From a virus, in IMG/VR virus record IMGVR_UViG_3300023213_000527: 44,243 nt of DNA; one strand, 5' to 3'. Made by a program: the position numbers and the translations under genes. The stretch's first letter is position 1. Each line of letters begins with the position of its first letter. Positions 7,965 through 44,243 of this stretch are shown here, in pieces. Under the pieces are notes generated by a model, which did not search any database, had not been told where the DNA came from, and saw nothing but the letters and a program-made list of their open reading frames with translations.

Positions 7965-10900
7965 TATCCATTAGCCTTTGCTTGTTCGGGCGTTACTTGA
8001 TCAAATTTGATCCAACAATCTACTACAAAATTAAAGAGGGCAGATCGAATTTTATCTTTGGGTTGAGATGGAGTGATAACATTCGCTTTTTTGGAGGAAT
8101 TTTCAGTGGTATCTGGTTGGGGGAGTGCGCTATCCATCAAACTCACATTAGAAATATTATTTCGAGCAGCATCAAAAGCTTTTTGAGATGGAGATTTAGG
8201 TTGATTTTTATCGCTCATATTAACTTGCACTATGGAAACATTGCTAGGATTAAGATGTGGATTAGTGGCAACACCAGTCGTATTTTTGAACAACTGTTTA
8301 GGCCCGGCTCCCGGAGTAGTTAAAATTTTCTTAACTTTATTGGCAAACAACACAAGCTCATTATTAACCGCTTGGCTGTCATCAAAATAAACTCGCAACT
8401 CTACTGAAGCTTTAATGGTATTACCTTTGGAGTTATTAGCGTTGATACGATAAGCTGCCGTATAGAGAATATTATTGATCGTTTGTGCATTAAAAGTAGA
8501 GTAAGTATTGATTTGTTGGTTAGGATCCCCTCCCCCAATTAAATCACTAGAATCAAAAGTATTAGAGCTGAAAGCGCTATTGGTTCTACTTCGCTTATCT
8601 TTGAGCAAAACTCCTAGATTAGTTTCATTGAAAGCGCTGGTTTGTCTCTGAATCACAAAGTCATTGAGATCTCGATTATTATAGAGCATCTTACCAACCA
8701 CATCCAACGGTGTTGGAATGTATTCTCCAGGAGTATGTCCATAAGTGAGTTCCAAAGTAGTAGTGAAACCACTGGAATAGGTAAAGGAATGTCTTACCGA
8801 ACTAACATAAAAGAGCATTCCACGACTTTCCACAAAAACAACCTCACCGGGTTGCATAAATTCATTTCCAGAAATGGTGGCAGTTCCACGAAGGATATTA
8901 CGACGCGCCCTGGCCAATAGCATAGCTGCGTAGGGAGCACATTGAGTATTAGGATCTTTCAAAAATGGAACATTGATGGAATTTTGTTGTTTAAATCCAT
9001 AATTTCTCCACATATCATAATCTATCGCGGCACCCGTGACTAAACCGTTTCCTCCCGATGGAAAGACGTTAAGATCCGATGGTAAGCTGGTGCTTGAAAT
9101 AAAAGGATCTAGCTGCCCATGAACTTCAACATAAGTAAAATCTGGTGGAGTTTCGGTGATATTGATATTTCTAATTTGAGAATTTTTAATGATGTATCGG
9201 GTACCAGATCCTATTCCATAATCATCATAACTTTCATCTTCAATCATATGTTCAAACACTTCTGGAATTTGCTTGTTCCCAAAAATACCAGGCATTAATA
9301 ATTGTCCAGCAGTATTATCATTCTCATCATCTAGCGATTTAAATTCAGTAGCATTCTTGAGAGCACCATAAAGCAATTTTATAGCCTTTTGTCTATCTCG
9401 TATTTTATCAGCTAATTCTTGAATAGTTTTAAAAGAATCGATGATGGTGCCCGCAGGAAATGATGTTCCGCCTGTATCGCTAGCTCCGGGATCCAAAAAG
9501 GACGTTCGAGAAATCTCTTGACCGGAAGCATCTCTAATTCTATTGATGAGTCTATCAATGAGAGTATTATTTTGAAAAGCGTTGATGTCAGTAATACCAT
9601 ATCCTGCTTGAGCCAATTTACTAGAAGTAATAGAACCAATGGAATCCAGCACTGCCAAAACTCGCTGGGAAGTATTGAAAACATCTTTGGTGGATTTAGC
9701 TTGCCCTTCCAAACCAATGAAAGCGGTGCGAGCATCAGGCTGAACTGTATCTTGCTGATCTGGATTGGCGGCACGTATCAATTCTTTAATACTGATTATT
9801 TTGCCAGTAGCTTCATTAGATAAAAATCCAAACGAATCTCCACTTCCGCTGGTGGATCCATTGGATAAAATGAATGATTTAGCATCTGCATCGCTATTAA
9901 TACCAAGAACTGCACAATCCAACCGGATTTGATCTTCTAAAATCTCCACTTTTTGAATCAATGCTTTAATTTGTTCGGAAAATAAGTCATCTAAAAATTG
10001 AGGAAATACCTGAACTCCGCTAGCTTTCTTTAGATACATCATCCGATAAAAAATGGAAGCAGGCATTCTATTATACTGAGAAGGTCTGATTCTAATGTGT
10101 CCTTGAGTATCGCAGAAAACTTCAAGATCTAAAAGACCAGCAACATAGGAGATCTTTTCCCTAACACTGGTAAATTCATTATTGTAAAGTCTGATTCCAT
10201 CCGTCAAAACTGTCTCATAAGCAAGAATATCATAGTCCTTATCATAAAAATCATCCACAATGAACAAATTTTTGTCTTCATTTGCTCTAACATTATAGGA
10301 CATACGATGAGTTAAATAGTTCAATTGACGTCTCAACAATCTACGTAATCCCGGATCGTTGGCTTGCTTGCTAGATTTGTTAGAATCGATGAACTCATTG
10401 AAATCAAAAGAAGTATCACTTCCGAATTGAACCAGCCCTGAAAACTTTTTACGATCTTCTTGTTCCTTGGATACCAGATCCAAAACTCCGCTAGCTAAAA
10501 CATTTCTTTCTGCTTCCGCCGCCATTTTATCTTTATTGAAAGTATCTTTGTTGTCAAAAGCAATATCCACACCAGCCCCAAAAATAAGCATTTTACGACT
10601 TAAATCTGCAACTTTTTGAAGCTTAGTTTCTAAATCTTTATTTCGAGTGATGATGTTAAGTTGAGTTTGCATTAAAGCATATGTTTGTTCATCCATTACT
10701 AAATTTTTGAAAGGAACAAAGTTGCCCCACAGCGCGTTATTTTTGGACAGGTCATTTTTCAAAGCATCATAATAAGAATAAGCCGCGTCTTGTCCGCTTT
10801 GAGGATCTCTTCCACCAGAATCAAAATTGACCACCGTCTTCCAATAGTTAGCAAAGTTATATGGTTGTCCAGTGATTAGCAAAGATAAAACATTCATAAT

Positions 10901-16973: not shown

Positions 16974-17324
16974 TCATCCTGTAACTAAATGCCGGCGCTT
17001 ACGTTTTCTGCCCTGATTTGGCGGCGGTGTCTGGGCACTAGCTTCCTTGACCATTCTACTGGATTCCTCAAATTCTTCTTCGGTGGATTCATGAACATTT
17101 CCTTCACCCAACAATTGTTTAACGGCTTCCGGATGGTCAAAAGAAGCTATTAAGTATGCGTGATTTTTAGCAAGGTCAGCATTTTCTACTTGATCTGCTG
17201 CCCAATTCTCAAACATCCACATTTTCTGAACCGGATCTAATTCTTCAAAGAAAGGATCATCAGGTTTTTTCTGGTAGATTTTGCAAAGTTCCCATAGAAA
17301 CCGGTGTTCCGGTTCAGACGCTAT
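16974..17324 (-). CDS. Tail assembly chaperone, -1 frameshift extension (lambda gpT-like part)
   Basis: The -1 frame is open from the A-AAA-AAA site (IASEPEHRFLWELCKIYQKKPDDPFF...) into the 16974..17222 ORF. Confidence 0.8.
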   Translation of the reverse strand: MASEPEHRFLWELCKIYQKKPDDPFFEELDPVQKMWMFENWAADQVENADLAKNHAYLIASFDHPEAVKQLLGEGNVHESTEEEFEESSRMVKEASAQTPPPNQGRKRKRRHLVTG

Positions 17325-17330
17325 TTTTTT
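17299..17330 (-). promoter_or_regulatory. Programmed -1 frameshift signal
   Basis: Heptamer A AAA AAA (17330-17324) followed by hairpin AACCGG-AACA-CCGGTT (17314-17299). Confidence 0.8.
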
Positions 17331-18016
17331 AGATCGTCAATCACCTCCTTAGCATCTTTTTCTGTTTTGATAGCGAATTTTTCATCTGCTTCCTTGGTCA
17401 TTAGCAAATATTCACTATAAAGCCGATTGAGAAGGGCATCGTCTTGTTCATCAATGAAATTTAAACGAGCACTAAGCTCAGAAGAATTTACAAAAGATTC
17501 AATATCTACTCCTGCTACTTGTTTTAAGGAACGACCTAACAATTGACGACGAATTTCAAAGGAAGCTTGAATAGTTCCATCGAACTCTGCAGCTGAAGTC
17601 ATTGCTTCTCGCATCTCTTTGCCTTTGAGTGTTTGAAGAACAAAGGCATTTTCTCCAATAACTACCTCACGAATAGTTCGAGTCATACCAACTAGCATTT
17701 CAATTCGTCGCTTGGCGCCTTCGTTTAAACGTTCTTTGCCAGAACGACGCATTTCTTTAGCTTGTCGAATCTGTTTTTCTAACTCTGCAGGTTCGTCTTG
17801 GATTTGAAGATGAGATTGAAAAGCGCGCAATTCATCTTCGTTGGGAACCGCAACAGTTCGTTGTTTAGATGGCGGAGTCGGATTAACAGGCTCTTCCATA
17901 TATCCGCTTTCATCGGAAATTTCGAATTCTTTTAGGGGCGTAGCGGCAAACTTTTTGCTACCTATCGGGCTATCATAATGAGGCATAACTAACTCCACAA
18001 GTTGAGGATTTATCAT
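17321..18016 (-). CDS. Tail assembly chaperone (lambda gpG-like part); alternative start ATG 17986 with GGAG RBS
   Basis: Acidic 231-aa ORF between tube and tape measure, ends CTA AAA AAA TAG. Confidence 0.8.
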   Translation of the reverse strand: MINPQLVELVMPHYDSPIGSKKFAATPLKEFEISDESGYMEEPVNPTPPSKQRTVAVPNEDELRAFQSHLQIQDEPAELEKQIRQAKEMRRSGKERLNEGAKRRIEMLVGMTRTIREVVIGENAFVLQTLKGKEMREAMTSAAEFDGTIQASFEIRRQLLGRSLKQVAGVDIESFVNSSELSARLNFIDEQDDALLNRLYSEYLLMTKEADEKFAIKTEKDAKEVIDDLKK

Positions 18017-18243
18017 GAGGCGAGAGATGAATACGTTTTCTCAAAAATATTTTAACAAAAGTACGCATATGGTGATATATAACACACGAAGCTAATATTG
18101 ACGAAAACCAAGTTAATATAGCGGAATGAAAACCTGTCTGGTTACGGGACGCAATCGGACATAAAACAAAAACGCGGTGAGGCGCTAGCAGTATTTAGGT
18201 CAATGAAACGCGAAGCTTTTGCCCTTAGGCAAAGGTAGTTCAC
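18017..18243 (+). mobile_element. Non-autonomous IS200/IS605-derived mini-element copy 1 (omegaRNA-like right end, no tnpA/tnpB)
   Basis: Ends GAAG-CTTTTGCC-CTTA-GGCAAAGG-TAGTTCAC; half left-end hairpin GCGAGAGATGAAT; homologous to 20154..20424. Confidence 0.75.
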
Positions 18244-18249
18244 ATAGAG

Positions 18250-19401
18250 TTATATATCACCTGGATTTAGAATATTTGTTTCCCATTTGATAATTAGCTT
18301 ATAGCCACTGTTACGAAGGATAGTTTCTCGTCGAATAGTTTCTTGATAAAGATCCCCAAAAGTCCTTTTATTATCTGAATTTGTCTCACTTGGAGAGTAA
18401 ATTGCCGGATTACCATGCCAATAATCGCCATAAAATTCGTAAATAGTATTGGTTGTAGGATCAAAGCCATCTACTTTGAAAATCTTAGAACCAACCTTAA
18501 TAGGGTATTGGCGGTGTTCTAGTGGAATGTCTAGAGAATTAAGCCAAGCTTGTTCTGGTTTGGAGATCAAATGACCACAGGATGGACAACCAACACCACG
18601 TAAATGGGAATAAACCGCTTGCCCAAAAATTCCATGTTTTTTACAGATTATAGAAACAATAGACTTGGTTTTAGGAATATTGATCAGAGAATAATCATAT
18701 TTATCACCATGCGTCTCTTTAGCACGAAATAAAAATTCTTCCATCGTAAGCGGTTCCAAATGCTTTCCAAGATTATACTTCAAATTTTGTCTTGCACATT
18801 GCTTGCATTTTCTTCCAGTTAAATGATTGCTTGGAGTTTGCCAAAAAGAACCATGATGTTTGCAGACAATTTGTATTGCAGTTTTACTGTGTTTATAGTC
18901 CACGAAAGAATAATCGTAAGTTTCGTTTCCATGGACGAGAATTGCTTTCTCTATGAATTTTTCCTTGGAACTAGTCTTTTTCTCATTAGCACACTTTAAA
19001 CATCCATTACCTTGCAAATGATGCATTGGTGTTTGAGAAAATTTACCATGTGTTTTACAGATGATGGATATGTGAGCTTTTCCATTTTTATATTTTACTA
19101 AAGAATAGTCATAAGTCGTTCTATGAATAGCAATAGCCTTTTGGATAAATTCTTCGGTTGTTAGTGGTTGCATAAATGCGCTAAGATTTTTAGCTTGTTG
19201 TATATGAGCACATTTCTGACAGCCATGTCCGTCCTTCATCAAATGAATAATAGGCTTTTGTTTAAATTGTCCATGAACAGGACAAATAATGATCACTGGA
19301 ATGTTGCTTAAACTATAAACGACTAGCGAGTAGTCATATAGATCGCCATGAACAAATTTGGCTTTGACAACGAATTGCTCAGTTGTTAATTTGGCTGGCA
19401 C
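18250..19401 (-). CDS. Putative homing endonuclease: four Zn-binding repeats plus Vsr/PD-(D/E)XK-like domain
   Basis: 4x repeat TxEEFIxKAxxxHGxxYDYS...CxxHGxFxQ...HLxGxGCxxC; C-terminal VDGFD...IYEFYGDYWHG. Confidence 0.8.
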   Translation of the reverse strand: MPAKLTTEQFVVKAKFVHGDLYDYSLVVYSLSNIPVIIICPVHGQFKQKPIIHLMKDGHGCQKCAHIQQAKNLSAFMQPLTTEEFIQKAIAIHRTTYDYSLVKYKNGKAHISIICKTHGKFSQTPMHHLQGNGCLKCANEKKTSSKEKFIEKAILVHGNETYDYSFVDYKHSKTAIQIVCKHHGSFWQTPSNHLTGRKCKQCARQNLKYNLGKHLEPLTMEEFLFRAKETHGDKYDYSLINIPKTKSIVSIICKKHGIFGQAVYSHLRGVGCPSCGHLISKPEQAWLNSLDIPLEHRQYPIKVGSKIFKVDGFDPTTNTIYEFYGDYWHGNPAIYSPSETNSDNKRTFGDLYQETIRRETILRNSGYKLIIKWETNILNPGDI

Positions 19402-19424
19402 GTAGAATCATATAACGTATCAAA

Positions 19425-20102
19425 TTAAAATAGAGTAACGTCACTTCCAATATCAATTAATCCAGCAGCATCGAGCGAACCTCTACGTGCTCCCGTATCA
19501 GCAAGTTGCTCCACGTTAACAATATTATTGCCGCTAATGACGTTAGCCACACCATTCGGACCCGCTCCAAGATGTTTAATGCCAATCTCTCCGCCAACAG
19601 CTACAGGAGTTGAGTTTCCGTTGTTTAGCACGCTGAAGATATCTTCTGCTTCCCAGTTCATAGTCTCGCTAATTACCCAATCGCTTACTTGATAAGTGTA
19701 GCTTATTTCTCCAATCCATACATTTTTGATAACGGTGGAAATTTGGCTGGACTGGTCTCGCTTCTGTTTGTCCAAAACCACAATATCAAACGGATAAACT
19801 TGACTCTTGGCATGAATAAAACCTCGAGAAAAAGCTTCTGCAATTCTTAAACGATCGAAACGAATTCGCTGACAAGTACCAGTAACGTTGGTAGATTGAT
19901 TAGGAACAGAATCCACGTGCCCATCGGTTCCAACTTCATCGATCATCCGAATTGGACGCCTCTCTGTAATAGCCAAAGATTGAACTGCACCTACTGGTGT
20001 ATTATTAACCAGAATAATAATATTAGTAGATATTCCGGTGCTGGTTTTATTAAGTCCGCTAGGCAGCGTAATTGTCGAACCAGTGTTAGGAGCTGTGGCC
20101 AT
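19425..20102 (-). CDS. Tail tube protein
   Basis: VGAVQSLAITERR...EVGTDG...DSVP and IKNVWIGEISY tube-like patterns; between sheath and chaperone; AAGGA RBS. Confidence 0.8.
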   Translation of the reverse strand: MATAPNTGSTITLPSGLNKTSTGISTNIIILVNNTPVGAVQSLAITERRPIRMIDEVGTDGHVDSVPNQSTNVTGTCQRIRFDRLRIAEAFSRGFIHAKSQVYPFDIVVLDKQKRDQSSQISTVIKNVWIGEISYTYQVSDWVISETMNWEAEDIFSVLNNGNSTPVAVGGEIGIKHLGAGPNGVANVISGNNIVNVEQLADTGARRGSLDAAGLIDIGSDVTLF

Positions 20103-20123
20103 TAGTTATTCCTTGTGTTGATA

Positions 20124-20137
20124 CTATGCAGTATTAT
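20124..20137 (-). promoter_or_regulatory. Candidate late promoter ATAAT-N3-GCATA (exemplar)
   Basis: Variants recur in intergenic gaps at 2005, 24875, 38448, 40449, 40994 (-) and 41018 (+). Confidence 0.5.
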
Positions 20138-20153
20138 GCGCATTTATCCTTAT

Positions 20154-20424
20154 AAATAGTAGAGGGCTCTCGCTTTCAAGCGAAAGATGAATGCATTTTC
20201 TCAAAAAATAATGTAGAAAAATATTGTTAACTTTCAAAAACTGTGCATAACGCGAGATATATTATGCATGAAGCTAAATTGACGAAAACCAAGTCATGAT
20301 AGCGGAATGAAAAATTGTCTGATTACGGAACGCAATCGGACATTAAACAAAAACGCGGTGAGGCGCCAATGTTAATTGGGTCATTGAAACGCGGAACTTT
20401 TGCTTTTAAGTGAAGGTAGTTCAT
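20154..20424 (+). mobile_element. Non-autonomous IS200/IS605-derived mini-element copy 2 (left boundary uncertain by ~5 nt)
   Basis: Left hairpin CTCTCGCTT-TC-AAGCGAAAG-ATGAAT, GATATAT motif, omegaRNA-like stems, right end GGTAGTTCAT; overlaps the HNH 3' end. Confidence 0.75.
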
Positions 20425-21223
20425 GCCTTATTTTTGTTCCGCCTTCTAATGCATTCAATTTTGAGGAATAAGGACGCAGATTGGTTAAAGTCCAGCACTT
20501 TTTGAAATTATCATCTTCCATCGAAGAATAAGAAAAATCAGATTGTGGAATGATGTGGTCGATATTCCATGTCCAAGTGGATGAATTATTATCATCCCAA
20601 GTTTTTCGATTATATAGTCCATAATTGTTCCAAGTCATCCATGGCTCAAACAAACTGGTCAGATGTGTTATTAAATCCTCCATCGCAAATGGTAAAAACT
20701 GAAGACAAGAACCAGATTTTCTTTTTCCATTTATTTTGAAATGTCTATTGATCGCATTAGAAATAATCTTTCTAATACGGTATCCAATATCATTGGCTCG
20801 TTTTTCTCTATCTCTCGCATTTTCCTTGTCGCGATTATTTTTCCTATATTCTCTTCTTTTAGATTTACTCTTCTCAGTGCTGTTTAATTTTCGACTATAT
20901 TCTTGTTCGCATTCAACACAAAGAGCACTAAACCAAAAGCTAATTTTTGTGCTTGCTCGTTTTCTTTTATGTTTTCGGAAAGAATCAATAGAATATGTTA
21001 TTCCACATATTTTACATGTTTTACCATTGGAATAATCCTGAGGAAAAGGACCAAAAATTGCATTATGATGTTCTGGTTTTAATCCTAAATTTTTAATAGC
21101 ATTACCTATTTTACCGCGAGAAATTCCTGTTGCTTTAGCAATTCGGCGCTCTCCATATCCTAAATGGAATAGAGATTTAATTTGTTCTAATTGTTCTTGG
21201 ATAAGTCCGGATTTCCTATTCAC
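20381..21223 (-). CDS. HNH/EndoVII-like endonuclease with N-terminal HTH; C-terminus recruited from the mini-element
   Basis: HTH (GYGERRIAKATGISRGKI), CxxC..CxxC, WNIDHIIP...NLRPYSSKLN. Confidence 0.85.
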   Translation of the reverse strand: MNRKSGLIQEQLEQIKSLFHLGYGERRIAKATGISRGKIGNAIKNLGLKPEHHNAIFGPFPQDYSNGKTCKICGITYSIDSFRKHKRKRASTKISFWFSALCVECEQEYSRKLNSTEKSKSKRREYRKNNRDKENARDREKRANDIGYRIRKIISNAINRHFKINGKRKSGSCLQFLPFAMEDLITHLTSLFEPWMTWNNYGLYNRKTWDDNNSSTWTWNIDHIIPQSDFSYSSMEDDNFKKCWTLTNLRPYSSKLNALEGGTKIRHELPSLKSKSSAFQ

Positions 21224-21240: not shown

Positions 21241-21990
21241 CTATGATTTGTGCCTGATTTTTCTAGTTCCGTCTAAATTGTTTAATTTAGCGGATAGTGG
21301 CCTCAAATTATTTAAATCCCAACATCTTCGAAAGTTTTCATCTTCCATGGAAATGTAAGGCAAATCGGATTGAGGAATGATGTGATCAATCTGCCAAGTC
21401 CAAGTATTTGGATCATTATCATTCCAAATTTCAGCGTTGTAGTTACCGTGATTGTCCCAATTCATCCATGGTTCGAAAAGATTTTCAAGATGTTGTTTGA
21501 GTTGATCGATGGTGTAGGGGAGAAATTGAAGACAACTACGACCACCTTTAGAAGAGCCTGCGGATTTTAATCCTCTCCAAATAGCATATGATACGCTACG
21601 TCTGATAACAAAATTTGGATCAGTTTGACGCCGGATTTTAGCACGCCGTTTAGCATTTTCATTTTGTAAATACCGCTCACAATTTAAGCAATATGACTCA
21701 TAGCTTTTTCTGATATGTCCATTTTTTCTAACACATATTCGTTTTCTGAATTGACTGACATTCTTAACAGAGCTACACTGCACACATTTTAATTCTACAA
21801 TACTGTCAAAATCGATTGTGCAAGGAGTTTTTCTGCCTATGTTATAAGTGCCTAATTTCTTGTATCCTTGCTGCACCATCCACCGGCTGATGCCAAGTAT
21901 TTTAGCGATCTTTCTGGCTCCTATATGGCGCTCGAATAGCGTCTTGATTTGATCAAGCTGCTTTTGAGATAAAATGATTTTGGCTGGCAT
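21241..21990 (-). CDS. HNH/EndoVII-like endonuclease with N-terminal HTH
   Basis: HTH (IGARKIAKILGISRWMV), CxxC..CxxC, WQIDHIIP...NLRPLSAKLN. Confidence 0.85.
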   Translation of the reverse strand: MPAKIILSQKQLDQIKTLFERHIGARKIAKILGISRWMVQQGYKKLGTYNIGRKTPCTIDFDSIVELKCVQCSSVKNVSQFRKRICVRKNGHIRKSYESYCLNCERYLQNENAKRRAKIRRQTDPNFVIRRSVSYAIWRGLKSAGSSKGGRSCLQFLPYTIDQLKQHLENLFEPWMNWDNHGNYNAEIWNDNDPNTWTWQIDHIIPQSDLPYISMEDENFRRCWDLNNLRPLSAKLNNLDGTRKIRHKS

Positions 21991-22016: not shown

Positions 22017-24839
22017 TCAAAGTCTACCGACCGAGACTTTGATATAGATGAAGTTAACTGGATATGTAGGTTGTACTCTGACGCCAATATCCCATTGAGT
22101 GGGATCCACGTCATCCCTCTGCACGCTCAGGTCTTTAAATGCCGTAATCAATCCTTGAGAGATCAATGAGTTCAATAACAACACTGCTCTAGTATTTAAA
22201 ATAGCGGCAGTATCTGGAGTTTCTGCGTTGCCAATGAATCCCTGAAATCCAGCTCGTAGTGTTTTAGCCACTCGATCTCGAATGAAGACAATGGAAATTT
22301 CCTGTTCTTCCACGAAACCGCTCTGAGTAGTAGTTTTGCCCCATACCACTCTACCACCGCCCGCCACTGGTTGGAGCGTAGTAACGCCTGCCGCTGCCAA
22401 CTGTTCCAGAGTTAAGTTAGAGAATTGCTTATTACTCAAAATAGTGAATCCACTCAACACCTTATTAGTTAATGGATTTTCGAGTCTAACATCTGCTGAC
22501 AAGAAACCGGCTGCTGCAGCTGCGAGGTAGAATCCATCGATGAGAAGATTGGTAGTTCCTGCCTGTACCACAATTTGATCTGGATAGAAGAAAACAGATC
22601 GGAAAGTATTACCAAAAGCATTAGAAACTGAGTAGTTAGCCAAATCTTCGATATTACCAGCTAGAACATCGGTAACGGTAGCGCCCTCAATTCCTTCAAT
22701 GATACCAATATCTTCTACTGCAGCTAGAGCGGTTCCTATCAAGTTAGCAGGGGTTAGTCCTTTGATTGCTCCAATGAACAGAACCCGTTCTTTTCTGTTA
22801 CGAATATTGCTCATCGATTTACAATGAGACAAAGCGTTCTGGAAAATAACCGAAATGGTCTGTTTGGGCAATGGAACTAGAATATCACACTCTACCGCTT
22901 CTAGAGAGGCTAAAGCATTAATCCATCCCGCATCGAAGAAGGTGGAGTCTCTTTGATCCACTATTGTCACACGTAAGGCGTTTCCATTTGGAACCACGTT
23001 ATGATTAACAACAACATAGTTGCTGACAAGTGTCGGATCCAACACTTCATACTCCACACCGCTTTCACTGACTATAGCTTTCTTGATGGTAATTTGATTA
23101 GGAGCCACCGCCATAATATCATACAGCCCATTGTTCCCAACTGGTTGAGAGGCAGATCCGGCAACAGAACCAGATATTTTAAGTCTAAGAGTGGTAATTC
23201 CAACAATCGCATTAAAGTTAATGGAAGCGCTAGTAAGCGTTGCCGATCCTGTTCCGGGTCCAGAAGTAACTAAAACACCATCTGTGCCTGCCCCGCCAGT
23301 AATTGCTAAACCGGTATTAGGATTAACCACGGAGAATGTTACTGGAGTTTCATTCACAAAGTCGGATAAGAAAGGTGGAGCATCAGTAGTTCCACCGGAA
23401 ATAAGTGCTCCATCTGCTATAAACGTTAATTGCCCGTTGGAAACGCCGGAAATCTTAAAAAATCCAAAATTAGCCGAGTTAACTGATTGTATAATTTTGA
23501 GAGTTTTGCCAACAAAAGTGGAGTCGAAAACAATAGAAGAGCTAAGAACTCCTTGATTTTGAAAAGCCGGCAATCTACCAATGTATCCGTCTTCTCCGAA
23601 AACAAGATCACCAAAAGTCTGTTTAACAGTGTAGGCGAAAGAGTTTCCAGCGGGAGCCGGAGTATTATCGATGATGAATTGGTGAGTTGTGGGGTTGCCT
23701 GCAGTATCCAACGTAAAAAACGGAAATTTATTTGGAAAAATTTGAGTTTCTACGTTGGTGGTGTTATTTTTGACGAAGAAGTGAATGTCAGCACTAATGG
23801 TTGGAGTTACTCCAATTGGTAGTGGAAAAATAAACTCATCATCATTTGGCGCCAAGGCATTTACTTCTAGATCCAACAGATAAGAAGTTCGCCGAGGTAT
23901 TGGAGGAGCCGCTTGACAAGTGATCAAAGCAGGAGAAGAGTTAGCAAAAGCTAATTGAGCGCCTAAACTCAAGTTATTGGTTAAACTTGGAATTCCATGA
24001 CGTTTAACGACGCTGCCCAATCCTTGTAACAACACTGGAGCATTCAAATTTAGAGTTGGAATATAGTTGGCGGTTAACGAATCGCCTCTTTTAAGGACGC
24101 CGCTAGAAGTAATAACAGTAAAAGCATCACCCGGCACGAACGGCGAAGTAGTAACACCTAAAACTTGAGTTTCCGTGATAGAGAAGCTCAGAGTATTATT
24201 GGAAACCACGATACCATTAGCTGTCCAAATAAAGGGATTACCATTGGCATCCAATTTGGAACCAGAAATAGATCCAAAAGCTATAAATTTGGCTGTTCCC
24301 GCGATAGGTTGATTGCTAGCATTTCTTTGAACAGAAACGCAACGAATGGTCCATGTTTCAGGGGCTGCATTTATATCAAGTAGAGCTAAAGAATTAACAG
24401 TGCCCAATCCAACGTTAGTAGAAAGTGCTGAATAGAAAAGCCCTCCCTGATCTACTAAACTAGCGCGTTGCAACTCAATTTTTCCAGTATTAATATCAAT
24501 ACGATAATCAAATTTATTGCTAAATGGATTGTTGTCGATTAGAGCTTCTAGACCAATTAGAGGAATACCATTCTTAAATAGCGTGGTTCGATTAGAAATT
24601 AGAGGAAAATTGCTCAACAAAAAGTGTCTGCCATCAGCGCCTTGATTTGAAGAATAGCTAGGGTTAAGTCCATCGATACCGCCGCCTTGAGCTTGAGCAA
24701 CAACAGTTTCGTCTGTGGATCCTTCACCGATGACGGCTGCAAGACGTGATCCTCCGGGAACAGAAACGCCGCGGCTTTGGGTGATAACATCTGTAAAGAC
24801 GCCCGGAAGAACATTTGTGGCACCCGGAATATTAGGCAT
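22017..24839 (-). CDS. Contractile tail sheath protein
   Basis: N-terminal LPGVFT, C-terminal LTNKVLSGF...GVTTL...EISIVFIRD...VQPTYPVNFIYIKV sheath signature; extra beta domains inserted. Confidence 0.9.
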   Translation of the reverse strand: MPNIPGATNVLPGVFTDVITQSRGVSVPGGSRLAAVIGEGSTDETVVAQAQGGGIDGLNPSYSSNQGADGRHFLLSNFPLISNRTTLFKNGIPLIGLEALIDNNPFSNKFDYRIDINTGKIELQRASLVDQGGLFYSALSTNVGLGTVNSLALLDINAAPETWTIRCVSVQRNASNQPIAGTAKFIAFGSISGSKLDANGNPFIWTANGIVVSNNTLSFSITETQVLGVTTSPFVPGDAFTVITSSGVLKRGDSLTANYIPTLNLNAPVLLQGLGSVVKRHGIPSLTNNLSLGAQLAFANSSPALITCQAAPPIPRRTSYLLDLEVNALAPNDDEFIFPLPIGVTPTISADIHFFVKNNTTNVETQIFPNKFPFFTLDTAGNPTTHQFIIDNTPAPAGNSFAYTVKQTFGDLVFGEDGYIGRLPAFQNQGVLSSSIVFDSTFVGKTLKIIQSVNSANFGFFKISGVSNGQLTFIADGALISGGTTDAPPFLSDFVNETPVTFSVVNPNTGLAITGGAGTDGVLVTSGPGTGSATLTSASINFNAIVGITTLRLKISGSVAGSASQPVGNNGLYDIMAVAPNQITIKKAIVSESGVEYEVLDPTLVSNYVVVNHNVVPNGNALRVTIVDQRDSTFFDAGWINALASLEAVECDILVPLPKQTISVIFQNALSHCKSMSNIRNRKERVLFIGAIKGLTPANLIGTALAAVEDIGIIEGIEGATVTDVLAGNIEDLANYSVSNAFGNTFRSVFFYPDQIVVQAGTTNLLIDGFYLAAAAAGFLSADVRLENPLTNKVLSGFTILSNKQFSNLTLEQLAAAGVTTLQPVAGGGRVVWGKTTTQSGFVEEQEISIVFIRDRVAKTLRAGFQGFIGNAETPDTAAILNTRAVLLLNSLISQGLITAFKDLSVQRDDVDPTQWDIGVRVQPTYPVNFIYIKVSVGRL

Positions 24840-25904: not shown

Positions 25905-26005
25905 GTCAATAACTTACGACTAAAGTCGTAAGCTTGTCGCTCATCCTACCATAAGCAGGATGTTGTTTTTTAATGGCAACAATAGGCTGATTGACAGCAG
26001 CCCTG
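25905..26005 (-). ncRNA. TnpB omegaRNA (reRNA) scaffold overlapping the tnpB 3' end; 5' boundary approximate
   Basis: Successive stems GGCTG../CAGCC, TGTTG../CAACA, CATCCTGC../GTAGGATG and terminal IS hairpin; known architecture of tnpB loci. Confidence 0.65.
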
Positions 26006-27045
26006 AATGAAATATTTTTAGCAGCATTGAGATCCGCGTTTATAGTATAACCACAGGTTTGGCAAATAAAAAGCGCTTGACTTTTCCTGTTTTTCTTATC
26101 GCAAAACCCACAGCAAGAGCAAGTCCGAGAAGTGTTTCTAGGATCTACCTTGATTACGGGAATGCCTTCTAACCTAGCCTTATACTCGATAAATGCTGTT
26201 AACTCTCCAAATGCCCACTTTCCGAATTGCTCTCGTTGTTCTTTGCGAACCGTTTTCTTGAAGTTATGGAGATCCTCGATAGCGATCCCCATTCCAAGTG
26301 CCTTAGCGACTTGAATAATTCGTTTAGCGATAACATGATTGGTGTCTTTTTTAAATCTACGTTCCTTTCCTGATATGTTCTTTAGTTTCTTTTGAGAAGA
26401 GTTGGTATTGAGAGATTGAAGTTTTGCTCGTAACTTGGTGTAACGTTTCCTGTTAGCGTCGGTTTTCTCACCAGAGAAAGTTGCTCCTTCTGAGGTGGTA
26501 GCTAAGTTAACGATTCCCAGATCTACTCCCAAATACTCTTTTACCTTTTTGGGTTGAGGTTCGGGAACATCAACGGAGGCTTGCAGATAGAATTCTTTAT
26601 TTCGATAGATGAGTTTGGCGGAAGAGCGAAGGGATTTTTCGGAGAGTTTCTCGAATAGTTTGGCATATTCTCCAAAAACAATGGGAATAAATAGTCTGCC
26701 ATCCAAGGAAAGAATAGAGATAGTTTCTAATTTCTTCCAATTGAGAATGCGGGCATCATATTCCATCGAGGAGTTCTTTTTAAAGGTATGCTGAACTTTC
26801 TTATCGATTGTGTAAGAATCGCAAACACGAGAGATAACACGAATAGCAAATTGGGAAGGAAGATTGAACTTTTGGCGGAGTTCATGGTAAATTTCTTCCT
26901 GAACCTTAAACTTATTGAATAAGCGATTGTTAAAGCAATATTCGCTAACCCAATTGCAAGCCGCATTGAATTGATAGATAGAGCGAAGAAGTTTAGATTT
27001 CTGCTCTGAATTAGCGAGTAATTTGACAGAAACGGTTAAGAGCAT
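25906..27045 (-). CDS. tnpB: RNA-guided endonuclease TnpB
   Basis: RuvC motifs GVDLG, IAIEDL, NADLNAAKNI; Zn finger CSCCG...CQTCG; 379 aa. Confidence 0.95.
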   Translation of the reverse strand: MLLTVSVKLLANSEQKSKLLRSIYQFNAACNWVSEYCFNNRLFNKFKVQEEIYHELRQKFNLPSQFAIRVISRVCDSYTIDKKVQHTFKKNSSMEYDARILNWKKLETISILSLDGRLFIPIVFGEYAKLFEKLSEKSLRSSAKLIYRNKEFYLQASVDVPEPQPKKVKEYLGVDLGIVNLATTSEGATFSGEKTDANRKRYTKLRAKLQSLNTNSSQKKLKNISGKERRFKKDTNHVIAKRIIQVAKALGMGIAIEDLHNFKKTVRKEQREQFGKWAFGELTAFIEYKARLEGIPVIKVDPRNTSRTCSCCGFCDKKNRKSQALFICQTCGYTINADLNAAKNISFRAAVNQPIVAIKKQHPAYGRMSDKLTTLVVSY

Positions 27046-27054
27046 GCTATATGG

Positions 27055-27062
27055 TATATATC
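27055..27062 (-). promoter_or_regulatory. Candidate GATATATA promoter (exemplar)
   Basis: Recurs at 760, 5939, 18251, 43845 (-) and 18074, 20256 (+), mostly 6-9 nt before an ATG. Confidence 0.5.
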
Positions 27063-27126
27063 AGAGGTTCTCAGAAAATGCAATTCATCCCACGATTAAA
27101 ATCATGGGCTTCCTTGCTAAGAGATC

Positions 27127-27494
27127 GTGAGTGAAACTTTGCGTCGTAAAAGATAAATCGGATCATGTTTCTTTTGATGGTATCTTTTTCTGGCTCGAGC
27201 CGCATTTTTCTGTTTACCTTTGATACTTTGATTATATGCTTTTCTATGTTCTATTCTTTCTTCTTTGTGGTCATATTCATATTGTTTTTTTCTAGCTAAG
27301 ATATTTGTTCTGTTTTCTCGATGATATTGTCGGCATTGTGTTCGCTCACATTCTCGACACTTTCTCTTAAAATAGGTTTTCTTAGTTTTTGCATCAAAAG
27401 ATGGCTGAAAATTATCTTTGGTTAATTCTAATAATTTTCCACATTTTACACATTTTCTAAGGATCAATTCAACTTCCCGGTAATGTATTAACAA
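27127..27494 (-). pseudogene. N-terminal half of the HNH gene interrupted by the tnpB element
   Basis: CVKCG...CRECE Zn ribbon, basic helix, ends HDPIYLLRRKVSLT at the insertion point. Confidence 0.85.
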
Positions 27495-31200: not shown

Positions 31201-34200
31201 TAATCTATCAGGGCTATTAGGAGTCGCTAATGCTGGATCGAAATCCAACAAAGGTATTGGTTGATATTCTCCTTGATCGTTGATACATAGCAACCAGTTA
31301 ATATTATACAAGACGTTGCTGAAAGATTCATTGACCATGGGAATAACCACAGTCTCGTTACCAAGCTGCTTAACTTTTCCATTGACAAGAACCCCGCCGC
31401 CTAATAGATAAATCTGTCCGTTATCTGGATTGGGAGATGCGTCTGATAAATCAAATCCATTAATAACTCCATTAGAATGGAACAATTTTTCTGGAAGTTG
31501 AATAAAATTGATGGCAGAAGAACTAAGATCTTTTTCGCTGGTATTTCCGAATTGTCTCTCATCTCTAACTTGATTAACTGTTAGGGTGACATCGTTGAAT
31601 TGGCAGGTTCCAATTAACATAACTTCATCGTCTAGAGACAAAGTTGGAAATAACTGGAACTCGATCACCTGATTGGTAAATGAAGCCACTGGCGCATTGA
31701 TATCGAATACAATATCGATGTAATCGTTGTTAGTTTCATCCAAAAACCTAACTGTTTGTCCTTTTCTACCAAAAGTAAGCGGGCCCTTTCTGGTGAAATT
31801 GGTTCCGTCGAAAGTTGATAAATATCCATTGAAATCGCCCAATACCCCGTCAAAACTCAAAATGTTGAGAGCAATTTTAGTCACTGAGCTGAATAAATAT
31901 CCTCTCAATTTTGGAGAAACTTTGACGATGTTAAGTTTGGCTAATTCAGAATAAGTGGCTAGTGTGACATTTCCGTTGATAGTGGCGGCGCTGTTACCGA
32001 TGTTGATACGAGCGCGTTCGTGAGTGAATGTCTTTCCGTCCTGATTAACATACACCTCGAAGTGTCTCTTGAATGGGGAAACAACGGAAAAATCAGTGGC
32101 ACTTTCCTTGTTGAAGGAAACGGAATCCGAGTTAAAATAAATAGCTACTTTACTGCCAAGACTCAGAGTAGGTTGAGGAGAAGATCCGGTAGCATGCACC
32201 GAATCATAAACGGTAATATCAGTAGTAGAAGCAGTCCCACCACAGTTAACACAGTTAAACGAAACTGTTTTGATGATGAATCTTCCAAAGTTGAGTAAGG
32301 CTCCCTGTCCTAATGATTGAACTACTAGTGTTTTGCCAGCCTTTAGATTAGAGGTGGAAAGGTCTAATGGAATACGATAGGTAGTTTCTACTCTTCCGGT
32401 AGGAAATGGTCCCGGAAAGATATTTTGATTTTGCAAAGTAGCTACCCAATATCCATCTCCATAGCCATCTAAAGCTTGTCCAATATCCAATGCCAAGCTA
32501 TCTCTTTCAATGCCATTGACATAATAATTGTTTCTCTTGAGAGGAACAAAAATGATAGTTGGAACTTGAGAGGCTTGTGGTGATCCATAAGAAGTCAAAA
32601 AGGGTGGGCTAGCAATGTTACCACCAAAGGGACCAAATCCAAGTGGATCGGGAGCCACTAAGTTAGCGCCCACTGGAAAAATTCCAACCACGTTATTAGG
32701 AAATTGAAGGTTAGTGGCATTCTGATCAAAAGCGCCATTAGGCGTGACCACTGCACTCAATACGGAGAAAGAGGCGTTGTTATATGGTTCAGCTAGCATA
32801 ATGCCGAATTCTCCCTGATAAGAGAAGGCAATAAATCGGTAATTGAATCCAACAGTTCGAAGAGCGTTATTGGTTGCTTCTACCACAGTATCGATAGTAT
32901 ATTTTCCGGGAGTAGTACCACGGTTTCCGGTAACATCAATGCCGGGCAAAATAAAGTAACCATCCTGAGGCGATCCATCTGGATACAACGCCAAATATAA
33001 CAAATAATGAGAGGCGTCTAAATGGTCTGCGTTAAAACCAACACCAATAGCTTGGGCACCACGAGGCTGACCAATAATTAAACTTGGAATTTCAGAAAAA
33101 GCGTTATTAGCGGGAGCAATAGCTAGAACACCTTGTTTTTTATTGTTGAATAATGGACGATCAATTCTAGCAGAAGCATTACGCGAACTAAATGGGTTTT
33201 TCCCAGCAATCCTCACAACATATTTCTTATTACCGCCACTTTGGATGTATTTTTTCTCTTTGATAACAAAAGCTAGCAGTTGTGATCCATAATTGATTCT
33301 AATGATGTCACCAATTTTAACCAAAGCAAATTTCTCATCAAAAACGTTGGAAGCTATATCCGCAGCTGCTGGCATGAACTCTACAATATCATCACCAGCG
33401 TTAATGTCATCGAATGGGCTTGTATTATAGCCATCGTTCAATAAATGAGCGAATGCAGGGGTTGGTGGAATGATAGGTTGTCCATAGCCATCTGCAGCGA
33501 GAGATGAAGACCGAGAAACCCGAGAAATGCCATTAGTATAAAGATTCTGAATGCGAGTTCCAAATAGGAAAATGCTAGCACTATCAATGAAGGTAGCAAA
33601 TGCTTGCAAATCCTGAACGTTTTGTGGAATTACCTGAAAACGGGCACTATTTAGAAAAATACCGCTAGCGAGATGTCCGTAGTTAGAAGGATATACTGAT
33701 CCGTTGTTAGTAGTAACTGAGCTAATAATACCGAACGGAGAACCATCAGCGAACTGGTGAGCCAATAACTCATTGTTCATATCATTGACAGCGGAGAAAG
33801 CGCTGGTCGGATCTCTTAACAAACCGAATTTGTTCTTGATGAGTTTGCTAGGATCGCTAATCTCATCAATTCCATCTAAAGCATGGCGATAAATAGCGCC
33901 GATTAAATGCGGTTCTAATTTAGAACCACTAACTGAAATCCAGCCCAAAGCCACATTAACGTTATTAGACAAATCTCGAATATAGTTAAAAAGATCCTGA
34001 GTTCGATGATCCAACATTAACTTGGATTCTGGAATCCCAGCATTAGCGGCAATTTGACCTTGAGTAATGGGAAGGGTAACCAAACCAAGACTGGTCAGAG
34101 CAGATGCTTTAATGTTTCCAGCAGCATCCAAAGCAACGCCCAAACGCAGCGCTAAGGAAGTAGCTGATCCTGCGATATTAGTGCCGAGTGCGTTTTCAAT

Positions 34201-34338: not shown

Positions 34339-34746
34339 TTATACCTGCGAGTTATTGGGAGGAGACGGTTTGTCAGATGAGGGTGATTTGGGAGAAGTGA
34401 TGGAAGAAATAGCACTGACGATTTTATCTCCAAGTAATGCCTTAATTACTCGATATATTAAAGTAGAAAGTAATCCTGCTACTAATCCAAAAACAAATCG
34501 CCCACTTGTGGTAGTCAATCCATCTGGATATGGAAACATGGTAAGTGCTGCGGCTCCTCCTGCGCCCAAAAAAACAGGAAGAATTGGTAACAATAAATCG
34601 GTCCAAAGCTTGGATTCTTTGGCAAAAATCTTATACGTGTCCATCAAAAATTCAACAATCTTGCGGATCACGAAGATCACGGCAGCGATTCCCAAACTAA
34701 AAAAAACAAATTGCCAGCTTAAAAGCGTTTGTAGAAGCGGATCCAT
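34339..34746 (-). CDS. Holin-like small membrane protein
   Basis: 135 aa, three hydrophobic helices, polar tail, AAGGAG RBS. Confidence 0.5.
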   Translation of the reverse strand: MDPLLQTLLSWQFVFFSLGIAAVIFVIRKIVEFLMDTYKIFAKESKLWTDLLLPILPVFLGAGGAAALTMFPYPDGLTTTSGRFVFGLVAGLLSTLIYRVIKALLGDKIVSAISSITSPKSPSSDKPSPPNNSQV

Positions 34747-41055: not shown

Positions 41056-42549
41056 ATGGCACTTTTAGGAATTCCCATACCCATAACAGCTGCTCGACTT
41101 CTTTCCGATATTGATATTCACGGAAAGAAAGTTGGAACCCACGAAATGCACATCACCATTCTGCTTTTTGAGGACGATTTTCCCATTTCAGAAATTGCCA
41201 AATCTTTAGAAACCACTTATGATGTAGTTTCTAAAATTGATCCTTTTACCATCAAAATCAAGAAAATATCTTGCTTCCCGCCAAAAGAAGGCAAACCACA
41301 TCCTATTATTGCTCTAGTGGAATCGGAGGAATTGCACGATCTATGCAAAAAACTACGTCGCAAATTTAATAAGGATGGAATTGACTTTGATAAAACCTTT
41401 AAGAAATACAATCCGCACATCACCCTATCCTATGCGGATAAGGAAATTAAAGAATTCAAAATTGATCCGGTGGAGATAGTGGTGCAGGAATTAGTATTGT
41501 TAGGCGGCAATCATGGTGATACTAGATTGTTTATTACTTTTCCGTTAAAGAGTCCAGAGAAGCATGGAGCATTGCTAAGAAAATGCAAAATATTAGAGAA
41601 ATGGGGCGAAGATCTAACTCCTCAAGAATATGAGAAAATGATGCTTCATCAGATGAAAAAGGGCGATCCAGAAAGTATTTTTGCTTTCATCACAGAGAAT
41701 AAAGACATTTTGAAAAGAAAAAAGAAAACTGATCTAATTTATCTCGCTAAAGCCGCTCATGACAGATTTAGGCGAACTGCTCCACGTGCCTTTTATAAGT
41801 GGGCGAAACGTTTATCTCAAATAGATCCAGAATTTTTTCAACCCGTCAATGATGCAATGGTTTCTGAGATCATAGACGCAAGAAATAAGGCACAACAAGA
41901 TCCTGACATGTGGTATTGGTTCATTAACGACGATTTGGTGCCATTAGAGGATTTTTTATCCGATGACCAAATACGAGAAAGTCTCAAGATCTTTTGGGAT
42001 TCGGTTAATTTTGAAGATCCTAACAAAACACAAAAATGGGCTTCTGCCTTAACTGGATTTCTTGCAAGCCGACGACTAAAACAAAATTTGGTGCTTCGAT
42101 TGTTGCAATGGATAGATCCAAAAACGTTCGCTGAGCACTATCATACACAATCATATCAACGTGTCCAAGAAAGATCTTTCTTCAAACAAGATAAATATAC
42201 TACCGATGACATCATTTATTTTTTAGAAATACCTATGGTTACCCATGTTCAATACCGCGAATTAAGGCATATCATTGATCATGCAACGCCTGCCGCCAAA
42301 AACATTTTACAGAGAGTACTTTGGCGGAGTCTATGGGGCTTTCCCAAATATTTTGTCTTAGACGAAAGCATGAAACCACTAGGATTGGAATACGACAAGA
42401 ACAGTAAATCGTATGTTCAAATCGGAGTAGAAATTCCTTTGTATGAAGGGATAGGTAGAGCTGAAAATATCGATGATCAAAAGTGGCGCGATTTATTCGC
42501 AGATTATCAAATTGTAGCATATCCGGGAACGTTCGCAAGTTTAAGTTAA
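41056..42549 (+). CDS. 2H phosphoesterase (LigT/Acb1-like) fused to an unknown helical domain
   Basis: Two HxT motifs (MHITI, PHITL) ~85 aa apart in the first 165 aa. Confidence 0.8.
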   Translation: MALLGIPIPITAARLLSDIDIHGKKVGTHEMHITILLFEDDFPISEIAKSLETTYDVVSKIDPFTIKIKKISCFPPKEGKPHPIIALVESEELHDLCKKLRRKFNKDGIDFDKTFKKYNPHITLSYADKEIKEFKIDPVEIVVQELVLLGGNHGDTRLFITFPLKSPEKHGALLRKCKILEKWGEDLTPQEYEKMMLHQMKKGDPESIFAFITENKDILKRKKKTDLIYLAKAAHDRFRRTAPRAFYKWAKRLSQIDPEFFQPVNDAMVSEIIDARNKAQQDPDMWYWFINDDLVPLEDFLSDDQIRESLKIFWDSVNFEDPNKTQKWASALTGFLASRRLKQNLVLRLLQWIDPKTFAEHYHTQSYQRVQERSFFKQDKYTTDDIIYFLEIPMVTHVQYRELRHIIDHATPAAKNILQRVLWRSLWGFPKYFVLDESMKPLGLEYDKNSKSYVQIGVEIPLYEGIGRAENIDDQKWRDLFADYQIVAYPGTFASLS

Positions 42550-44013: not shown

Positions 44014-44243
44014 TTATTCACGCCGCCGCCCATCCAATACATTCTGTTTTGCTGAATATGGTCGCAAATTTTTAAGATCCCAACATTTCTTAAAATCTTC
44101 ATCTTCCATTGATGTATAACAAAACGATGAGTGCGGAATAATATGATCAATTTGCCATACCCAAGTATTTGGATCATTATCGTTCCAAGTTTTAGCATTG
44201 TATCTTCCATAATTATTCCAATTCATCCAAGACTCAAATTGTC
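44014..44243 (-). CDS. HNH/EndoVII-like endonuclease (5' part outside the window)
   Basis: QFESWMNWNNYG...WQIDHIIP...NLRPYSAKQN. Confidence 0.85.
   Translation of the reverse strand, partial: QFESWMNWNNYGRYNAKTWNDNDPNTWVWQIDHIIPHSSFCYTSMEDEDFKKCWDLKNLRPYSAKQNVLDGRRRE

Follow-up and report, generated by a model that had tools for sequence, protein, structure and literature searches.

Why should a phage carry two similar repeats without a protein gene on either side of its tail tube gene, and could these repeats still serve as a source of guide RNA? The repeats, called copies A and B here, lie in a stretch of 44,243 nt (the window), which is part of the 118-kb virus contig IMGVR_UViG_3300023213_000527 (G000). 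A sequence-only reading had taken them for remnants of an IS605-type element that spread after losing the nuclease gene tnpB and that may supply omegaRNA guides in trans to a TnpB protein elsewhere in the phage or its host. The pair is real, with 80% identity over the whole alignment and 84%, ungapped, over the final 146 nt. It is close to certain that both copies are tnpB-less miniature elements of the insertion sequence (IS) family IS200/IS605 (IS1341-type, PATE-like) and that they have kept the entire omegaRNA scaffold.

Anatomy and descent of copies A and B

Both copies sit between genes in plus-strand orientation, antisense to the minus-strand genes on either side. Their parts are given below in window coordinates; the scaffold scores come from a covariance model (R1), and G002 is a companion contig of 327 kb (IMGVR_UViG_3300023213_000432).

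18009-18013, plus strand: TTTAT, putative target-adjacent motif (TAM) of copy A; 8 independent insertions have this pentamer, or one differing by a single base, immediately 5' of the left end
18014-18243, plus strand: copy A, whole element
18014-18096, plus strand: left end of copy A, from pairwise alignment to copy C and a G002 mini-element and from family alignments
18097-18126, plus strand: 30-nt internal piece kept by copy A, once RuvC-II codons; the matching codons of full-length tnpB read LIDENQVIIAE in the alignment
18129-18243, plus strand: omegaRNA scaffold of copy A; R1 score 123.9 bits, one broken pair
18135-18143 with 18153-18161, plus strand: helix 1 of copy A
18147-18150 with 18238-18241, plus strand: pseudoknot of copy A
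18173-18176 with 18209-18212, plus strand: helix 2 of copy A
18181-18188 with 18195-18201, plus strand: helix 3 of copy A
18215-18223 with 18228-18236, plus strand: helix 4 of copy A, which is also the right-end hairpin
18244-18263, plus strand: guide of copy A, formed by its right flank and antisense to the DUF723 endonuclease gene at its 3' end, including the stop codon
20143-20147, plus strand: TTTAT, putative TAM of copy B, within the last codons of the opposite-strand endonuclease gene
20148-20424, plus strand: copy B, whole element
20148-20277, plus strand: complete left end of copy B, from alignment to full-length elements
20168-20187, plus strand: left-end hairpin of copy B
20254-20263, plus strand: -10-like box of copy B
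20264-20266, plus strand: tnpB start-codon remnant of copy B
20278-20307, plus strand: retained 30-nt internal piece of copy B, from the family alignment
20310-20424, plus strand: omegaRNA scaffold of copy B, helices as in copy A with an offset of +2181; R1 score 122.2 bits, one broken pair
20425-20444, plus strand: guide of copy B, antisense to C-terminal codons of the endonuclease gene at 20381-21223

The ends proposed earlier, 18243 and 20424, are right, and the guides do begin at 18244 and 20425. The start of copy B, which had been placed at about 20154, was wrong and moves to 20148, directly after the TAM, and copy A starts at 18014. The suspected IS605-type left-end remnant was found as a hairpin and a conserved motif, with a layout like that upstream of the local tnpB gene, and the GATATAT motif lies at 18074-18080 and 20256-20262. 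In copy A, the first 5 nt of the left end are kept and are followed by a 26-nt internal deletion that takes out the 5' arm of the left-end hairpin; the 3' arm, the conserved motif, a -10-like box (18071-18082), and a remnant of the tnpB start region are still present. Copy B therefore differs from copy A in having subterminal hairpins at both ends on the same strand, whereas the left one is lost in A. Because of this loss copy A should no longer be excisable by the transposase TnpA. The same loss rules out a composite transposon in which the left end of A and the right end of B move the tube gene. The coding capacity of the mini-elements is limited to an 11-codon remnant after the start codon.

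The last bases of every family member are TAGTTCA, or nearly so, plus a C or T, and similarity between the members stops there. Beyond this conserved TTCAY end, the guide flanks of A and B part at once from those of all other copies, and the structured right end noticed earlier is confirmed, with a sharp boundary at the last base of each copy. On the other side, the eight insertions are unrelated upstream of the shared pentamer, and from this we infer TTTAT as the TAM. In IS608, the tetranucleotide 5' of each hairpin matches the cleavage site. Under this rule the left-end tetranucleotides predict TTAT or TTAC, which fits the observed TAM. At the right end, by our reading of the sequences, GAAG goes with TCAC, and GAAA or GGAA with TCAT, in 10 of 11 elements; copy B, which ends in TTCAT, carries the terminal-base change and the matching change in the tetranucleotide before its right-end hairpin together.

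The element boundaries are validated by two reconstructions. The final 13 codons and the stop codon of the endonuclease gene at 20381-21223 are now derived from copy B, and precise removal of 20148-20424 replaces the thirteen element-coded residues with an ending of the paralog type (…IRHKCA then stop vs …IRHKS then stop). In the second case, precise removal of a 253-nt mini-element in G002 restores a 97-aa Cpn10 open reading frame. This mini-element (G002 ~165207-165459; L130, plus strand, 1501-1753) splits a phage Cpn10/GroES gene after codon 12, and both halves of the gene appear undecayed, suggesting that the insertion is recent.

The family in this genome comprises six intact mini-elements and one partial copy. 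Five of the seven are in G000 (A to E), where they were located by BLAST and the covariance model. The other two are in G002, which was reached through a 15-mer scan of IMG/VR and which also holds two full-length elements of 1.28 kb, FL1 and FL2. The G000 copies outside the window region described above are:

G000 8235-8487, minus strand: copy C (BLAST/covariance model)
G000 31317-31604, plus strand: copy D (BLAST/covariance model)
G000 33695-33845, minus strand: copy E, partial (BLAST/covariance model)

When the mini-elements are aligned with FL1 and FL2, it can be seen that two internal deletions removed nearly all of tnpB. What has been retained is the left end up to the tnpB start codon, the 30-nt RuvC-II piece, and the last ~125 nt, which contain the C-terminal codons and the right end. 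The internal deletion that had been noticed in both A and B is thus a pair of junctions, identical in these two copies and found also in C, D, and both G002 mini-elements; that all six have both junctions in common means that the mini-element spread after the loss of tnpB, as had been supposed. Four of the mini-elements are 88-92% identical to each other. Copy E has a different, single deletion and is without helix 1, and in FL2 the left-end and right-end hairpins are alike in sequence. The 30-nt piece is 90% conserved among the six mini-elements, as much as the scaffold core, though it no longer codes for protein; it forms a weak hairpin of 4-6 bp only, and a search for pairing between it and the scaffold found none. 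A metagenome scan with an 18-mer and then the covariance model returned two more full-length relatives only and no more mini-elements.

Two other remains were seen in G000, both outside the window. At ~17510-17560 there is a relic of ~45 nt consisting of TTTAT, the first left-end bases, and a right-end-type hairpin with the family terminal motif, that is, a hybrid of left and right ends without the guide-RNA part. A 46-nt direct repeat (33933-33888 and 33696-33651; 89% identity) brackets copy E and corresponds to C-terminal codons from a small gene. Its upstream unit follows a TTTAC and differs from the guide of E at 1 of 16 bases.

Scaffold structure and cognate nucleases

The scaffold was first modelled from an alignment of 13 sequences, made up of the mini-elements, FL1 and FL2, and five 3' ends taken from related tnpB elements. 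In these, RNAalifold finds four helices, with 95.6% of the paired cells able to pair compared to 27-38% in slid controls. Changes on both sides of a pair occur in 19 pairs, and none of 500 shuffles reaches the observed values. Both examples of covariation given by the sequence-only reading hold up, as helix 3 pair 58-76 (UA to CG) and helix 1 pair 13-27 (GU to AU). The structured strand is the plus strand of the element because the model has invariant G-U pairs.

The model built from the 13 scaffolds also matches the 3' ends of more distant tnpB genes, on viral contigs, a Chloracidobacterium metagenome-assembled genome (MAG), a Bacteroidales MAG, a Plectonema assembly, and two metagenome contigs, which confirms that it represents the scaffold of the guide RNA in this TnpB clade. 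In each of 15 full-length relatives, the match of the model stops with the conserved terminal motif, within a few bases of the tnpB stop codon. An alignment of 22 sequences was used to test a pseudoknot between the helix 1 apical loop (GGAAY) and an RUUC located at -6 to -3 relative to the start of the guide, a pairing that the model does not include; it is 98.8% paired, and three of its four pairs have changed on both sides. The covariance-model search recovers copies A and B at 122-124 bits (E ~1e-28), far above chance, along with the further copies already described. No Rfam 15 family matches anywhere in the window at the gathering score.

A guide RNA of this kind would need a nuclease, and the question becomes whether one is encoded in the same genome. 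The first 127 nt of G002 (1-127) are the exact reverse complement of the first 127 nt of G000 (1-127), and its last 127 nt (327297-327423) are the exact reverse complement of the last 127 nt of G000 (117913-118039, which is 44117-44243 of the window). Such a double 127-nt overlap is the signature expected of neighbouring contigs in a k = 127 assembly graph. Joined, the two contigs give a circle of 445,208 bp with a GC content of 38.6%; CheckV puts their completeness at 28% for G000 and 76% for G002. The sequence that they have in common consists of repeats only (IS copies, endonuclease paralogs, and mini-elements). From the overlaps, it is very probable that G000 and G002 are one huge phage genome. 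An earlier idea, based on the lack of structural-gene similarity between G000 and G002, held that the G002 mini-elements (88-92% identical) reflect transfer between unrelated phages; it is rejected in view of the exact 127-nt overlaps at both ends.

The cognate nucleases are found on the companion contig. FL1 and FL2 each encode an intact 397-aa TnpB with the full Pfam architecture (RuvC and zinc-ribbon domains), which matches the ISDra2 TnpB structures with E = 2.9e-82. The proposal of a cognate TnpB elsewhere in the phage is thereby borne out with two intact genes. The 445-kb genome holds seven tnpB genes in all, from several subfamilies, and one Y1 tnpA (E = 4.7e-42). Scaffolds of the type studied here number nine: two full-length, six in intact mini-elements, and that of copy E. 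In bacterial genomes the best relative of the cognate TnpB is 47% identical (Scytonema, Chloracidobacterium), and no host copy of the element was found.

The tnpB gene nearest to the copies belongs to a different subfamily:

25906-27045, minus strand: local tnpB (Pfam hits)

This gene was considered as a partner and ruled out, since its product is 24% identical to the cognate TnpB and R1 has no match at its locus; the scaffold of A and B is indeed unlike that of the local tnpB, as had been stated. The local element (window 25905-27130) has a second copy of 1227 nt on G002 (224859-226084) that is 93% identical.

Possible use of the guides and the tail tube locus

What the guides would be aimed at follows from where they lie. 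They were rightly read as the right flank of each insertion; the target to be expected is, however, the empty insertion site, that is, the TAM joined to the right flank, and not another locus. A different idea, for which the sequence-only reading left room, is that the guides are weapons, retargeted against a host gene or a competing phage. Phage mini-CRISPR arrays without cas genes exist and offer a precedent, but, as with every IS605 insertion, each guide is no more than the sequence next to the element, and neither has a second TAM-flanked match in the 445-kb genome with up to 3 mismatches. This idea is hardly credible.

For the mini-elements to be used, they would also have to be transcribed. 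The GATATAT motif aligns with a perfect TATAAT in FL1 and FL2, located 7-9 nt before the start codon, and variants of it occur in the mini-elements; the motif is also present ahead of the local tnpB and ahead of the tnpA-tnpB element. The retained box is probably the -10 element of a promoter for a nearly leaderless tnpB mRNA, kept in all mini-elements. As a separate observation, the 7-mer TGATATAT occurs 7-11 nt before the start codons of several genes (directly before it at 34387), including the local tnpB. These sites are all on the minus strand, at G000 21355, 34387, 50469, 74563 (window 767), and 100858 (window 27062), and the 7-mer is in slight excess, with a total of 31 compared to 24 expected. 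Possibly it acts as an extended -10 box of genes whose transcripts have almost no leader.

The proposed working of such a system is as follows. The Y1 TnpA would move the mini-elements in trans as single-stranded DNA. The kept tnpB promoter box would drive a short plus-strand transcript ending in the scaffold and the flank-derived guide, and one of the two cognate TnpB proteins would load this RNA. The complex would then cut copies of the genome, or co-infecting relatives, in which TTTAT is joined straight to the right flank (an empty or excised site), and recombination would copy the element back in, leading to its retention and homing. Judged by sequence, a slight preference goes to the view that transcripts of the cassettes are taken up in trans by the cognate TnpB and direct it to cut empty TTTAT-plus-flank sites. 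Taken by itself, the statement that the RNAs of the mini-elements are really made and used in trans appears evenly balanced.

The evidence that speaks for use is the contrast in conservation. Among the six mini-elements, identity is 88-90% with hardly any indels in the scaffold core and the 30-nt piece, whereas it is 61-80% with ~200 gap positions in the left end. Of 64 paired columns, 18 vary, nearly always with pairing kept, and each copy has 1-2 broken pairs. All divergence among the six postdates the loss of coding constraint, so the preserved pairing points to selection on the RNA and hence to its use by TnpB. It could be argued instead that the copies are inert passengers, non-autonomous elements recently moved by TnpA whose guide part persists because of the short time or through recombination, while the RNA goes unused; they would then be ordinary decaying transposon copies. 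This is the main rival explanation, and we regard it as rather unlikely. Copies A and B are ~20% different, yet in each the pseudoknot is intact and 1 pair of 32 is broken; conservation is higher, and indels are fewer, in the non-coding scaffold and 30-nt piece than in the left end; TnpA requires the end hairpins only, yet all 115 nt are kept in six copies; and intact cognate nucleases are present.

Several observations nevertheless weigh against use in trans, and some of these favour the passenger explanation directly. No natural empty allele was found and no guide-target pair was observed. Helix 3 of B is that of FL1 and helix 3 of D is that of FL2, a mosaic likeness that suggests gene conversion, which could import conserved sequence; the conservation of the scaffold could then reflect recent spread or gene conversion with the full-length copies. 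The four copies that are 88-92% identical are fairly young. A sigma-70 scan gave nothing above chance, which leaves the -10-like box as the evidence for a promoter. The sole phage tnpA belongs to an element with hairpins of a different sequence, so cross-mobilisation has to be assumed. Copy A is immobile, copy E has lost helix 1, and the 45-nt hybrid of left and right ends in the same genome shows that decay is possible.

The setting of the two copies is given by the following genes, which in descending coordinates run from the sheath through two endonuclease genes, copy B, the tube gene, the DUF723 endonuclease gene, and copy A to the last gene listed:

22017-24839, minus strand: tail sheath gene
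21241-21990, minus strand: EndoVII/HNH-like homing endonuclease gene
20381-21223, minus strand: EndoVII/HNH-like homing endonuclease gene hit by copy B (PHROG 1035)
19425-20102, minus strand: tube-like virion protein gene
18250-19401, minus strand: DUF723 endonuclease gene
17321-17988, minus strand: gene beyond copy A

In most related huge phages the sheath stop codon and the tube start codon are 18 nt apart, with nothing between them. The repeat of copies A and B is absent from all of the ~40 related huge phages examined. EndoVII-like or DUF723 endonuclease genes recur at both spots beside the tube gene in some of the relatives (L145, L154, L158, L161), and by this comparison the two positions flanking the tube gene are hot spots for homing endonuclease insertion. 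A search of the INPHARED phages by DNA and by tube protein gave no match. Elsewhere in the window, at 41056-42549 on the plus strand, a 497-aa protein is encoded with an N-terminal domain like that of 2H phosphoesterases and 2'-5' RNA ligases; it matches the anti-CBASS Acb1 family at threshold (27.1 bits vs a cut-off of 27).

Since A and B each lie between an endonuclease gene and a structural gene and are antisense to them, one could consider that their minus-strand reverse complement has been co-opted as a cis element, acting as a terminator, a stabilising hairpin, or an insulator between the endonuclease and the downstream structural gene. On the minus strand of both there is a terminator-like hairpin followed by a T-run (18171-18186 and 20352-20367), which is the reverse complement of the scaffold linker. 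However, this hairpin has just 5 pairs, and terminator-like sites occur at chance (2 found vs 1.9 expected). Read from the minus strand, the invariant G-U pairs would turn into A-C mismatches, other copies are in sense orientation or within coding sequence, and sheath and tube do without the element in most related phages, as seen above. A role of this kind is very improbable.

If the cassettes do act as guides in trans, the locus takes on a further meaning. Selection on RNA structure would have continued since the nuclease gene was lost, and the phage would be keeping a dispersed set of six guide cassettes that have no nuclease of their own and rely on two TnpB genes. In mixed infection, every cassette would turn its own site and the linked alleles (here the tube gene with its flanking homing endonucleases) into a homing locus. 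This fuller reading, drawn from sequence comparison, is put forward as a tentative one that we hold to be somewhat doubtful. Were it true, it would represent a natural stage of many guides and one effector between a transposon omegaRNA and a CRISPR array, and copy A, no longer able to transpose, would be a guide locus fixed in place. The two spots next to an essential tail gene would each combine homing elements guided by RNA with others guided by protein.

Comparison with known systems

Elements without a protein gene that encode omegaRNAs and need TnpB in trans have been published as PATEs in Geobacillus stearothermophilus (Meers 2023; 10.1101/2023.03.14.532601), and recombination after cutting of empty sites was proposed there to restore or spread them. 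The mini-elements of this phage resemble PATEs in having no protein gene and ends that match tnpB-bearing elements of the same genome, as well as in keeping an omegaRNA that would need TnpB in trans and, presumably, in depending on TnpA in trans for mobilisation. They differ from the PATEs of Meers et al. in that the replicon is a phage of ~445 kb and not a bacterial chromosome, that six mini-elements face two cognate nuclease genes, that one copy has been fixed by a left-end deletion, and that a 30-nt internal tnpB fragment has been co-retained. The concept of the protein-less omegaRNA element is therefore already published, and the unusual part is the phage replicon. The present analysis adds the closed genome, in which cognate nucleases and a transposase accompany the cassettes; the base-level anatomy with TAM and boundaries; the covariation of the pseudoknot and of the end rule; and the contrast in conservation after gene loss. 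The parts are well defined: two cognate nucleases, six cassettes with known TAM and boundaries, one immobile copy, and a candidate transposase. If the cassettes are used, they form a compact natural system for asking whether guides from protein-less copies can be loaded in trans and whether they bias inheritance, a question that research on TnpB has so far only raised.

The omegaRNA of ISDra2 has been resolved by cryo-EM (PMC10097598), with a scaffold of 116 nt, four stems, a pseudoknot at -5 to -3, and a tetraloop at -20 to -17. The scaffold described here is similar, having ~115 nt, four stems, a pseudoknot that links the first stem-loop with the bases immediately upstream of the guide, and, in the last stem, a tetraloop at the same -20 to -17. 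The inferred TAM, TTTAT, is one base apart from the TTGAT of ISDra2. The difference lies in the gene, since in ISDra2 the RNA overlaps an intact tnpB, while the mini-elements have lost the gene and encode the RNA by itself.

The free-standing homing endonuclease genes of T4-like phages offer a second comparison. Both are selfish insertions between genes, beside essential structural genes, and the gain to be expected for both is biased inheritance in mixed infections; for the cassettes, unlike those genes, recognition would use an RNA guide and a nuclease encoded elsewhere. Phage mini-CRISPR arrays without cas genes are likewise guide-only loci that rely on an effector encoded elsewhere. In contrast to such arrays, the cassettes have no repeats and spacers, their guide is set by the site of insertion, and the effector would be the phage's own TnpB rather than the Cas protein of the host.

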